Shown one piece after another: positions 1 through 9,284 of a stretch of DNA of 64,000 nucleotides (position 1 is its first letter; each line of letters opens with the position of its first letter). This DNA comes from a virus. The notes beneath the pieces were generated by a model. It was not told where the DNA came from, made no database searches, and saw only the letters and a program-made list of their open reading frames with translations. The translations under genes and the position numbers were made by a program. The stretch lies in IMG/VR virus record IMGVR_UViG_3300020162_001876, positions 1 to 64,000 of that record; one strand, written 5' to 3'.

Positions 1-69
1 TATAAATTAACTTCGTATATTAAGACATAATTAATAATAAAAAATAAGTTTAATTAAAATTTAAAGGTT

Positions 70-471
70 ATGAACAGAAATGAAATTATTGCAAAAGTAA
101 AAGAATTAGGTTTAACAACAGAAAAACCAGCACATCAATGTAAAACAGAGTATTTACAAGAATTACTCAACACACATCATTCAGTTAATATTGAGGTAAA
201 ACAAAAAGGTAGACCTGTGAATGAAAACAGTAACAGACAAAAACGAATTGCTGAATTAGAAGCAAAACGTGCAAACGGTGAATTACGTAAAGGTAGACCG
301 GTTGTTGAAGGGAGTAATCGTCAAATAAGATTATCATTGAAAGGTACTCTTAAATTAGGTAGAAAACCAAACCCAGAAAGTGTAGCTTACAAACGCCGAA
401 TGGAGTTAGAAGCAAAACGTGCAAACGGTGAACTAAAAAGAGGTAGACCAGCACAAGTAAAAGCAGAGTAA
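70..471 (+). CDS. Basic early protein with AT-hook-like GRP repeats
   Basis: KGRP, RKGRP, LGRKP and KRGRP motifs; duplicated ELEAKRANGEL. Confidence 0.75.
   Translation: MNRNEIIAKVKELGLTTEKPAHQCKTEYLQELLNTHHSVNIEVKQKGRPVNENSNRQKRIAELEAKRANGELRKGRPVVEGSNRQIRLSLKGTLKLGRKPNPESVAYKRRMELEAKRANGELKRGRPAQVKAE
256..432 (+). repeat. 27 bp intragenic direct repeat
   Basis: TTAGAAGCAAAACGTGCAAACGGTGAA at 256-282 and 406-432. Confidence 0.9.
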
Positions 472-482
472 TTAAATTAAAA

Positions 483-506
483 AGGGTATAATTTATATTA
501 TACCCT
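483..506 (+). terminator. Stem-loop, possible terminator
   Basis: AGGGTATAAT-TTAT-ATTATACCCT right after the stop at 471; weak U tract. Confidence 0.5.
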
Positions 507-532
507 ATTCTCAACTATTAATCAGTATATAT

Positions 533-772
533 TTGAAAACACCCACTGTAGTAAATAAGAAATACATTAAATCATATAAAAAATACCCCAAATTTGAACC
601 TAAATCAAACCTAATAGTAGGTTGTGTATATTATGGTAGAAACCGTTCAAATCACTTAAAATTAGGTGTATTAACATTATTAGGTGATAAAACATCTACT
701 CTTAAACTTAAAGATGGTAAATCTGTTAAAGTTAAAAATATGACATTAAAAAGTGCTCAATTAGGGTATTAA
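533..772 (+). CDS. Small basic hypothetical protein (TTG start)
   Basis: ORF track; fills the gap between repeats. Confidence 0.55.
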   Translation: MKTPTVVNKKYIKSYKKYPKFEPKSNLIVGCVYYGRNRSNHLKLGVLTLLGDKTSTLKLKDGKSVKVKNMTLKSAQLGY

Positions 773-824
773 AGAGTATAAATTTTCTTCGTATATTAAG
801 ACATAATTAAAAAATATAAACGTT

Positions 825-3699: not shown

Positions 3700-3875
3700 G
3701 GAAAACACCTTCTAGTGTATTGGTATAATAAATGAGTATTCATGTGTGGGTATAAAATAAATGTATCTTATATGGAAACTGGGAGGTGTTAGGGTGAATA
3801 TAATAGGCAAGGTTCCGCTCCCGCGTGTATGTCATGAATGAGTTTCCTACCCATTCACCTTGTATATACACTCTT
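3700..3875. ncRNA. Candidate structured non-coding element
   Basis: No credible ORF; several 5-7 bp complementary segment pairs (see findings). Confidence 0.35.
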
Positions 3876-4703: not shown

Positions 4704-4940
4704 ATGAAAGCTAAAGTACAAATTAAATCAGTGTTCGAACAAATCGCTAGTAACGTGTTTACAATGAAAGACATTAACCAAGCTAAGGTATTCATCACTG
4801 AATTTATCACCAGTAAAGGTATAGACGGTGTAGATAAAAATACTATCGTGTATAACGTGAATAAATGTTCTAATATCAACCAATTACAACGTTACGTATG
4901 TAATTCGTTATTAATGTACGAAGGAATGGGAGTTAATTAA
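4704..4940 (+). CDS. Hypothetical early protein
   Basis: ORF follows a promoter repeat and precedes a terminator. Confidence 0.8.
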   Translation: MKAKVQIKSVFEQIASNVFTMKDINQAKVFITEFITSKGIDGVDKNTIVYNVNKCSNINQLQRYVCNSLLMYEGMGVN

Positions 4941-4965
4941 ACTCCCGTTTTTTTCTCTTTTTTTT
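4928..4965 (+). terminator. Intrinsic terminator closing the main early array
   Basis: GGGAGTT-AATTA-AACTCCC followed by a long T tract. Confidence 0.85.
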
Positions 4966-4979
4966 GAAATAAAGTTTGG

Positions 4980-5140
4980 AGGGACACCCTACCCGAACGC
5001 ACATGCACCACACACGAACGGGCACGGGTTGGCGCCGATCGCCCACGCGTCGTTGCTGTCCGTAACGGGAACGTGATCGAACAGTACACAAATTTCCCGC
5101 CCTTTCAGATCGAAAACGATCTTTCGCCCAGGCCCCTGTA
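4980..5140. other. GC-rich, CpG-rich non-coding island with multiple stems
   Basis: 95/160 G+C over 4981-5140 by hand count, in a very AT-rich window; several inverted repeats. Confidence 0.7.
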
Positions 5141-5214
5141 TATACTCATATATTAAAACAAATGCAGGTCTCCCCTTATCCCATATACTTATAGGAAATT
5201 AAATTTAAATCAAA

Positions 5215-5448
5215 ATGAAACAGATCAAAACCTTAACTTCAATGAGTGAAACGCTTGTTCTCCTATTGGAAGATCTAACCAACTTATTAAATGATATCGA
5301 TAATAGTGATTTAGTAAGGGAAATTGAGAATAACGTTGTTTCTCCCATGGAAGACGCGCAAGCACAATTAGATATTATTTTAGATGATATCGATGAGGGT
5401 ATTTATGATGAATACTCAGGAGAAGAGGATTTCGAAGAGTGGGAATAA
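5215..5448 (+). CDS. Acidic helical hypothetical protein
   Basis: ORF track; ATACTTAT upstream resembles the late motif. Confidence 0.7.
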   Translation: MKQIKTLTSMSETLVLLLEDLTNLLNDIDNSDLVREIENNVVSPMEDAQAQLDIILDDIDEGIYDEYSGEEDFEEWE

Positions 5449-5573
5449 CCATTTCGGGAAGTTTTCTTTGGGATGCAAAAATCTCTTTTTAAAAACTTTT
5501 TTGGGAAACCTTGTATATATACTTGGTTTCCTAATTTTTCCTTCGTATATTATATCATATTAATTTAAAATAT

Positions 5574-6239
5574 ATGTTTATGAAAAAGGTTTTATTGTTT
5601 TTAAGTTTAGTTTTTATTTTATTTTCATGTTCGGTTCCCGAAACATATGCTCCACCTTGTCTAGATGGTAGTTGTGATGCTGTTTTTAAGATTGATGAAC
5701 AAACTAACCCAGGCTCATATCAAGATGCTAATGGTGTATGGCATGTTAGATATACCGGGTTAAATTATTTTACTGTTATAGGAGATTTAGATCAATTAAA
5801 TCCAGAATATATTATTAATGGAACACCTTTAATTGAAACAGCATTTGATTCAAATTATTTTTATATAGCAAGGAATGTGTCATGGACTTACCCTATATAT
5901 TCATATTTGGGAATGTTTTCTAATGGTAATTTTTCTACCCCAATTCCTGTAGGTTATCAAACATATACTTTTTCTCAATTAAATTCTCAAACTAGTATAA
6001 TGAATTTAGCAGGATATACTATTCATAAGAATCCTCACCCCGATATTAATCATCCTGCTTATCCTACTTACTTTTCTTCTTATAGTAAGTATAATTATAA
6101 TCCGAAACAAAGTATGGTATTTTTCCCAGAAATGATAGGACAACAAGTTGAGGTTTATATTAGAGTTACTTTTAATAGTGATTTCTATGGTAGTAGGGAA
6201 GAAAAATTTTATACATTACGCATTATATTTGAAAATTAA
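5574..6239 (+). CDS. Predicted lipoprotein
   Basis: MKKVLLFLSLVFILFSC type II signal; behind the last early repeat. Confidence 0.8.
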   Translation: MFMKKVLLFLSLVFILFSCSVPETYAPPCLDGSCDAVFKIDEQTNPGSYQDANGVWHVRYTGLNYFTVIGDLDQLNPEYIINGTPLIETAFDSNYFYIARNVSWTYPIYSYLGMFSNGNFSTPIPVGYQTYTFSQLNSQTSIMNLAGYTIHKNPHPDINHPAYPTYFSSYSKYNYNPKQSMVFFPEMIGQQVEVYIRVTFNSDFYGSREEKFYTLRIIFEN

Positions 6240-6251
6240 AATAAGAAAAAT

Positions 6252-8483: not shown

Positions 8484-9284
8484 ATGGAGATATTAAATTC
8501 TGAAATTAAAATACTTCATATACCTCAAGAAGAAACAGAAGTACAATATACTAAAAAAGGAACAGTTCGAAAAAGAAAACCTAAAGAAAAAAAGCAATAC
8601 TTCACTCAAGATACAGAAGATGCTATTATAGAGTATTTAGCTGCAACTGATTTACATATTAGAAATAAAATTTATAACGAACGTATTAAATATGCTTTTC
8701 ATAAATTAACTGAAAATATAATTCATACATTTAAATTTTATTATACTGAAGTAGAAACAATAGCTGAACTTCAACATGAAGTAACAGCCTTTCTGCTTGA
8801 AAAACTACATTTATATAAACAATCAAAAGGTAAAGCTTATTCTTATTTTGGTACTATTGCTAAACGTTATTTAATTCTTTATAATAATAAAAATTATGAA
8901 AAGTTAAAAGGTAAAGCAGAAGTAGCAGATATAGATGAAGATAGAACTATTGTTTCTAATATAGTAAATGATTCTGAAAGTATAGATGATCCTTTAATGG
9001 GTGAAAATTATTTTATAGATAAATTTATTCAATATATGGATTTATATCTATTCAAAATATTCCCAGAAATTGAAGATGCTAAAACTGCTGAAGCTATTAT
9101 GCAGCTTTTTAAATTTAGAGAAAGTTTAGATATTTTCAATAAGAAAGGAATTTATATTTATATTAGAGAACAAACAGACCAAGATACTCCTCAAATAACT
9201 AAAGTAATAAAAAGGTTAGAAAAAGTTTATAAACGTTTACATTATCAATATCTAGATTATGGATATGTTAGCTTAAATTATTAA
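8484..9284 (+). CDS. Putative late-transcription sigma factor (T4 gp55-like)
   Basis: KAYSYFGTIAKRYLI resembles the gp55 / sigma region 2 motif (F/Y)xYFxxI; last gene before the late block. Confidence 0.65.
   Translation: MEILNSEIKILHIPQEETEVQYTKKGTVRKRKPKEKKQYFTQDTEDAIIEYLAATDLHIRNKIYNERIKYAFHKLTENIIHTFKFYYTEVETIAELQHEVTAFLLEKLHLYKQSKGKAYSYFGTIAKRYLILYNNKNYEKLKGKAEVADIDEDRTIVSNIVNDSESIDDPLMGENYFIDKFIQYMDLYLFKIFPEIEDAKTAEAIMQLFKFRESLDIFNKKGIYIYIREQTDQDTPQITKVIKRLEKVYKRLHYQYLDYGYVSLNY

Follow-up and report, generated by a model that had tools for sequence, protein, structure and literature searches.

In phage phi29 the p4/p6 complex acts at the A2c-A2b-A3 promoters, and in the middle promoters of T4 a MotA box replaces the -35 element. 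Iterons, for their part, are 17-22 bp long. The iss region of T5 is non-coding, exceeds 1 kb (1.2-1.7 kb) and carries many repeats together with about eight paired DnaA boxes (Davison 2020, bioRxiv 10.1101/866236). The locus described here, a compact GC-rich island in an AT-rich phage genome, resembles the switch regions of phi29 and T4 in being non-coding and in lying between early genes and the next temporal class; a search of the literature returned no description of such an element.

The window, by which we mean the whole 64-kb stretch of DNA that was analysed, is the first part of a 110,998-bp record that is 68% complete and 29.7% GC; the window itself is 28% GC and depleted of CpG (observed/expected 0.44). 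Its closest cultured relatives are Flavobacterium phages, through a weak match of a single gene only: among GenBank phages, the sole match was to the lipoprotein gene neighbouring the island (Flavobacterium phage vB_FspM_immuto, 69%). Positions 1-5.6 kb hold 14 one-gene cassettes, all on the + strand and each with a TTTGG-N17-CGTATAT promoter, and the order of these early cassettes is different in every subtype of the relatives described below. One relative, G001 (L024 7299-9001), carries a tandem duplication of the homologues of window positions 54-817, which hold an AT-hook-like early gene and the gene next to it. Outside the window, 24 clustered tRNA genes lie at record positions 102148-106610, with early-type CGTATAT promoters at 102007, 102089, 105266 and 105654. 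None of the small proteins around the island is annotated. The locus comprises the following features, in which W, C, D and A denote subtypes of close relatives.

4704-4940, + strand: 78-aa early gene from the ORF list, 5' of the island in the window's arrangement, with homologues of 58-92% identity in related contigs.
4920-4962, + strand: intrinsic terminator ending the early array, from the terminator scan (stem 4920-4954, then a T-run).
4980-5145, unstranded: GC/CpG-rich non-coding island, the whole module, recognised by composition, single-copy and aligned with 26 relatives (alignment A4).
4994-5019, + strand: a pair of CGAAC(G) boxes spaced by 21 bp, plus another at 5078, recognised as 5-mers that recur at offsets 37, 58 and 121 of the island.
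5027-5031, + strand: 5' arm of helix P2, GGTTG (columns 46-50 of alignment A6, pairing with columns 93-97).
5042-5064, + strand: block 1, a near-invariant 23-nt box, CCCACGCGTCGTTGCTGTCCGTA, with mostly invariant columns in alignments A1 and A4.
5074-5078, + strand: 3' arm of helix P2, TGATC, from covariation in A6.
5090-5095, unstranded: AAATTT tract, invariant in W, C and D (A6), with a run of six to eight A in its place in the wider family.
5107-5122, + strand: hairpin H, AGATCG-AAAA-CGATCT, its stem invariant in all 27 close sequences and its loop AAAA or ACTA.
5117-5130, unstranded: CGATCTTTCGCCCA box, conserved in sequence across the superfamily as CGATCTTT(C)ACCCA.
5137-5153, + strand: TGTATATACTCATATAT, which holds the palindrome GTATATAC, occurs in every member and resembles a -7 box without a -33 partner.
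5183-5193, + strand: second copy of ATATACTYATA, just 5' of the 77-aa gene.
5215-5448, + strand: acidic 77-aa gene, 3' of the island in the window and 5' of it in A-type relatives.
5449-5573, + strand: conserved non-coding continuation and last early promoter (CCATTTC..., AAAATCTCTTTTT..., a hairpin with a TTGTATATATACTT loop, and CGTATAT at 5544).

The original prediction of a sharp GC/CpG island was borne out at positions 4980-5145, which are 57.8% GC and contain 19 CpG, where the average rate in the window would give 1.5. No other 166-bp stretch of the 64 kb reaches the GC fraction of the one that starts at 4974 (0.59, with the runner-up at 0.43), and with z = 5.4 the island also exceeds the mean GC content of the whole 111-kb record, whose other GC-rich windows (0.47-0.53) are mostly the 24 tRNA genes. 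CpG is also in excess of what the island's own composition predicts (19 against 13.4, p 0.02; observed/expected 1.42 versus 0.44 for the window), and GATC is found four times (5037, 5075, 5108 and 5118) where 0.58 are expected, a roughly seven-fold enrichment (p 0.002). These four sites had been predicted, as had the palindromes GGCGCC (5031), CGATCG (5036) and ACGCGT (5045) and a location directly after the terminator, and all are present, with the 4920-4954 stem and its T-run just upstream; 6-bp palindromes as a class are not above chance in the island (5 against 2.5 expected, p 0.11).

BLAST and nhmmer each gave one match in the 111-kb record and no paralogue or extra copy, and the island is single in every genome examined. 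It is present in relatives and is not an assembly artefact, because independent assemblies of many samples recovered it, in more than 30 contigs altogether. A protein-coding reading, based on two - strand ORFs (4933-5091 and 4937-5089), was rejected in view of 1-nt and 10-nt indels and of conservation in nucleotide blocks. We also discarded a host-derived sequence, an attP site and a prophage: the 106 matches in 185,579 prokaryote species genomes are all chance matches, almost all of them in GC-rich genomes, and none has the flanking boxes.

We gathered relatives through the neighbouring proteins and through short exact patterns in viral and metagenome contigs, which yielded 27 distinct island sequences (alignment A4) in the four subtypes labelled W, C, D and A. 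The island always ends the early cassette array and precedes a conserved block that runs to the genes W_8207 and W_8484; this placement, which the original prediction had given, is shared by all 27 close sequences and by the wider family. The complete relative G002 (IMGVR_UViG_3300035212_002004, 168 kb) has all its ORFs of at least 120 aa on one strand of a circular map, along which the cumulative GC skew rises monotonically. Its early-type promoters lie in two zones: one covers the ~19 kb that precede the island, the other spans 118-145 kb of the rotated map; one early promoter follows the island.

In subtypes W, C and D, the island lies between the 78-aa gene, followed by one terminator or two (the second, at the same place, in C and D), and the gene for the acidic 77-aa protein. 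A-type loci (L027 and L035, for example) have it after a homologue of that gene, with no terminator between them; by blastp, the A-type ORFs 5' of the island share 47-53% identity over 77 aa with the 77-aa gene (E 1e-17 to 2e-25). As the island is found on opposite sides of this gene according to subtype, island and gene have swapped places. The 77-aa protein has no Pfam, PHROG or PDB match. Its homologues are very acidic, with 22-24 D+E and 3-4 K+R, and the protein may act as a DNA mimic or as an early protein of anti-sigma type. The non-coding continuation at 5449-5573 stands directly 3' of the island in A-type relatives and in the more distant E-type relatives introduced below. Its hairpin (5478-5530, GGGAAACC...GGTTTCC, loop TTGTATATATACTT) provides, through the 3' arm, the -33 TTGG of the last early promoter, an arrangement that resembles a PeSL terminator/promoter composite.

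Block 1 has the consensus CCCACGCG.CGTTGCTGTCC.TA, also given as CCCACGCGKCGTTGCTGTCC-R-TA, and the invariant or near-invariant 3' parts of the island are CACCCA and TATATAC..ATATA; the spacers between conserved parts vary in sequence and keep their length. Subtype C has CCGTTNNCG twice, about 21 nt apart. ATATACTYATA occurs twice in the 111-kb record, at 5140 and 5183. Because the boxes are invariant across the 27 sequences while the neighbouring proteins fall to 45-60% identity, and because the layout survives in the wider family, we conclude that the island, previously undescribed, is a real and selected cis-element. A second non-coding island lies at 3700-3875 in the window and is conserved in L030 and G002; it ends like the one studied here, with CCCA, 7-10 nt and then GTATATAC (3850-3870).

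A pattern search revealed GC-rich islands of the same layout in more distant AT-rich phage contigs, whose types we label E, F and G. The 5' part of this layout leads from a terminator through two to four GATAGCG boxes with a 10-11-bp period (at offsets 51/62/73 or 43/53/64, for example, and with one inverted pair in L265) to CCCAYG...GGTCCATCGA, block 1 being recognisable as CCCAYG...GTCCAT; the 3' part leads from a G-rich spacer through an A-run to CGATCTTTACCCA and, after 6-9 nt, to GTATATAC..ATAT. Three or more helix-phased direct repeats are found in the wider family, as GATAGCG, whereas the window has only CGAAC at 4994, 5015 and 5078, and these CGAAC(G) boxes are a possible counterpart of the phased GATAGCG boxes. 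The E, F and G islands stand 1.5-8 kb 5' of homologues of W_8207 and W_8484, in the same orientation, those of W_8484 being 50-59% identical. In these types and in the distant relative L016, the 5' arm of hairpin H (AGATCG) is absent or down to 3-5 bp, while the 3' half and the ACCCA that follows are kept in all distant members; the F-type has a single GATC left. No island follows the 78-aa gene in L016, where a diverged copy is found 3 kb further on. That copy, at 6030-6240, contains TATATACCGCCGG twice and a diverged block 1 (CCCACATGCGCGGG), and its 3' end is unchanged (CGATTTTACCCCC...TGTATATACTAATATAT).

Direct repeats phased with the helix, a copy in inverted orientation, an A-tract and an 8-mer palindrome make up the usual grammar of DNA that is bound by proteins. 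The reading that we favour, with a probability of roughly 40%, is that the island is a protein-bound DNA control module, which closes the early array and stands at the head of the following transcription unit; from these sequence features we infer that it binds protein, acts as a promoter and has a switch role. One or more sequence-specific proteins would bind the short boxes on one face of the helix, namely the GATAGCG-type repeats, block 1 and CGATCTTT(C)ACCCA, and the bound boxes, together with a bend at the A-tract and the palindromic GTATATAC box, would give rise to a nucleoprotein complex. Such a complex might insulate the downstream unit from the many strong early promoters, and might also control a non-canonical promoter at the 3' edge of the island. 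This promoter would head the next transcription unit, which would contain the gene for the acidic protein or for the lipoprotein and lead toward the sigma-like gene.

Several observations are in line with a DNA control module. The island is conserved, single-copy and fixed in position, after the early array and upstream of W_8207 and W_8484; its boxes are phased, and no fold is common to the family. Conservation is by sequence and not by pairing, as the wider family keeps CGATCTTTACCCA and loses or shortens the AGATCG arm, and an AAATTT tract or an A-run is conserved 5' of the 3' boxes. At 5137, TGTATATAC resembles the phage's own -7 box and stands at a cassette-like distance from the next ATG. 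Its PWM score of -8.6, rank 241 of 64,000, is far below the 16-33 of the 13 modelled early promoter sites, and it has no -33 match (the -33 part scores -27 against +6 to +31 in early promoters), so that by PWM it is not one of the phage's TTTGG-N17-CGTATAT early promoter cassettes; sigma-54 and ECF motifs, compared by eye, did not fit either. On the L270 and L271 loci a pattern scan found no + strand early-type promoter, which leaves the 5137-type box as the one promoter-like element seen ahead of the lipoprotein gene. The box is not directly followed by an ORF in about half of the lineages, and ~110 nt of conserved non-coding DNA precede the next cassette.

This last point counts against the DNA control module, as do the covariation of helix P2 in W, C and D, the mean folding z of -1.2, the score of the 5137 box relative to real early promoters and the restriction of the window's repeats to 5-mers. 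Binding boxes alone also do not explain why its variable alignment columns are 55% GC in a 28-30% GC genome, and the other windows of comparable GC content are mostly tRNA genes, whose products are structured RNAs. A search among the neighbouring proteins, all of them without annotation, gave no candidate for the binding protein.

The composition of the variable columns counts in favour of a + strand non-coding RNA or RNA element, which would stem from read-through transcription or, in A-type relatives, from a 3'-UTR; we regard this as a rather doubtful alternative. Block 1 would lie in a helix-closed loop, the AGAUCG/CGAUCU hairpin would form the 3' end, and the product would be a regulatory or a protein-binding RNA. 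Such GC-richness of variable positions recalls the tRNA genes behind most of the other GC-rich windows, the spacing between boxes is fixed, and the A-type has no terminator between the 77-aa gene and the island. Helix P2, which encloses block 1 in W, C and D, is paired in 84% of cells, has four of its five pairs changed on both sides, and beats 300 of 300 column permutations and 500 of 500 shuffles; it forms on the + strand only, because it needs G-U pairs. However, for the A-type, all-27, E and EFG sets the unbiased covariation scans gave no helix that reached significance, so that the covariation check suggested at the outset yielded one 5-bp helix in three subtypes and nothing significant beyond them. 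Helices of the A-type reach 82-93% pairing and show C/U-G wobble changes as well as two GC<->UA swaps, but most of their changes are one-sided wobble, and they are not homologous to P2, because the two sit differently relative to block 1. Mean MFE z over the 27 sequences is -1.2, yet equal on both strands, and the window's own folding z against dinucleotide shuffles is -0.27 (+ strand) and -0.80 (- strand); the RNAalifold consensus is weak on both strands. All four stems of the original prediction exist in the window, but only AGATCG/CGATCT is kept in close relatives, where its loop changes from AAAA to ACTA with the stem intact; the other three are specific to the window's subtype, and the fourth has its 5' arm lost or shortened in the wider family. 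Hairpin H with the UUU after it fails the terminator scan. An independent RNA gene is argued against by the lack of an early-type promoter at the 5' edge of the island (score -48, by the early-class model only) together with the one or two strong terminators directly upstream, and helical-period direct repeats with an inverted copy fit DNA binding better. No Rfam family matched the 64-kb window at gathering score or the island at E<=10, and on eight related loci Rfam found tRNAs only, all outside the islands; ARAGORN detected no tRNA or tmRNA gene in the window or around the G002 island. With three of four stems unconserved, weak z-scores and no Rfam family, the multi-stem structured RNA first proposed has lost ground. 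A closing stem between the island flanks, a block-1 hairpin and G-quadruplex runs, assessed by eye, were set aside as inconsistent between subtypes.

The same phased GATAGCG-type boxes and the 23-nt box might instead be read by a phage protein at a unique replication or packaging landmark, an origin or a pac or entry-control site, which we judge unlikely; the early array would then be entered, replicated or packaged apart from the rest of the one-strand-coded genome. Terminus, packaging and origin functions of the island are possible but unsupported. At a replication origin, a quite improbable case, an initiator would bind the iteron-like boxes, and the A-tract with the AT-rich GTATATAC...ATATAT would melt, perhaps with the assistance of transcription starting at the 3' box, in the manner of T4 oriF/oriG or lambda ori. 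There is one element per genome, the wider family has its two to four boxes at a 10-11-bp period, the GC-rich block adjoins an AT-rich stretch and a promoter-like box, and in the A-type and several E-type relatives only a short non-coding stretch follows the box, as for a primer transcript. The AT-rich flank, however, is not distinctive, because the whole genome is AT-rich; the window's repeats are mere 5-mers, 4900-5600 contains no DnaA box, and there is no initiator-like gene nearby, the neighbouring proteins having no Pfam or PHROG replication match. The GC-skew switch that was to be looked for is not seen in G002, coded wholly on one strand with monotonic skew, although this is a weak test for phages. 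What keeps an origin alive is the phased GATAGCG repeats of the wider family. It is very unlikely that the island is a DNA-handling landmark, whether a packaging start or genome end or a T5-like injection stop that parts the first-entering early genes. In being unique, conserved and non-coding, and in marking the distal limit of an early block amid varying ORFs, the island does parallel T5 iss (bioRxiv 10.1101/866236), and it has more GATC than expected (4 against 0.58); the 173-kb contig G001 stops within the island, inside block 1, and two short contigs, L141 and L150, end or diverge just past the hairpin. Contigs G003, L030 and G002 nevertheless read through the island, many of the contig breaks near it can be put down to the repeated promoter cassettes, and the G002 'direct terminal repeat' is a 127-bp assembler overlap and hence uninformative on genome ends. 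The region is 0.17-0.3 kb long against 1.2-1.7 kb in T5 and has no DnaA boxes, and terL, at 47.9 kb, is 43 kb away. Instead of the clusters of TGATC(A/G) hexamers that flank the cut site at a P1-type pac, the island has a single TGATCR hexamer (5074). Near its end, in the last 36 nt, the oriented contig L150 (OGWP01003267.1) leaves the family consensus, which it follows up to CACCCACCCCCTC, and reads an unrelated TGCCTATCGTGACTGGGAAAC to the end; this may reflect a chimera, a linker or a genuine junction. Enrichment of CpG (observed/expected 1.42 versus 0.44) and of GATC (about seven-fold) would also suit a restriction or methylation decoy or target, with sites concentrated to titrate or sense a host enzyme, but this proposal has become scarcely credible: 6-bp palindromes are at chance level (5 against 2.5, p 0.11), GGCGCC, CGATCG and ACGCGT are not conserved between subtypes, F-type relatives retain one GATC, and the conserved set consists of non-palindromic boxes.

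The transcription unit headed by the DNA control module that we favour would lead toward W_8484 (window 8484-9284), which encodes 266 aa; public metagenomes contain over 7,600 homologues of it, none of them named. W_8484 has no Pfam, PHROG or PDB sequence match, and its AlphaFold model (mean pLDDT 67.6) gave no significant match in Foldseek. When the model was aligned with VIA-align, the best 50 rows were all sigma-factor chains or complexes thereof. The N-terminal part of the model (residues ~40-150) aligned best with T4 gp55 (Z 9.8, rmsd 3.6 A, 110 residues) and with sigma region 2 domains (Z 8-9, rmsd 2.4-3.0 A, ~90 residues), Z values that are no proof for helical proteins. A gp55-like nature of the modelled protein is plausible, not established, and W_8484 may be a phage sigma-like factor missed by Pfam and PHROGs.

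The phages that carry the island are ~165-175 kb, uncultured and Flavobacterium-type, from freshwater and marine settings, with no genetic system and almost no annotated regulators. A single-copy conserved cis-element at the boundary between the early and the next class is a handle on expression timing, replication start or DNA-end handling in such phages. Should the island be a replication or packaging landmark, it would serve a clade of uncultured aquatic Bacteroidota myophages that is large and distributed worldwide. The island is also handy as a metagenome marker for the clade, and it illustrates that GC islands of AT-rich phages are not necessarily structured RNAs.

Beyond its position, the island shares with the switch regions of phi29 and T4 a promoter-like element without the usual upstream box, repeated putative protein-binding boxes, a bend-prone A-tract and a location upstream of a sigma-like regulator gene, here a candidate. 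It differs from them in being strongly GC-rich, variable positions included, and in having a promoter that is a candidate only (PWM rank 241); MotA boxes, moreover, occur at many T4 promoters, whereas the island is single-copy. Iteron origins such as lambda ori and those of iteron plasmids are likewise unique loci, with short direct repeats at a helical period, as in the wider family, next to an A-tract and AT-rich DNA, and with local transcription possibly involved; unlike them, the island has boxes of 7 bp (5-mers in the window) and no adjacent initiator gene, DnaA boxes or skew signal. T5 iss offers a parallel that is positional only: there too, a conserved stretch of non-coding DNA that contains repeats and palindromes stands at the distal limit of the genes expressed first, among poorly conserved small ORFs; the island is 5-10 times shorter (166 bp, or ~300 bp with its continuation) and lacks DnaA boxes. 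The PeSL-type terminator/promoter cassettes of T4-type phages provide a further comparison. Although the cassettes of this phage are ~60 bp, AT-rich and present in 14 or more copies, and the island is 165 bp, GC-rich, unique and devoid of a -33 box, it is embedded in an array of such cassettes and ends it, and its 3' end, a hairpin followed after ~15 nt by a -7-like box, mimics the cassette core.
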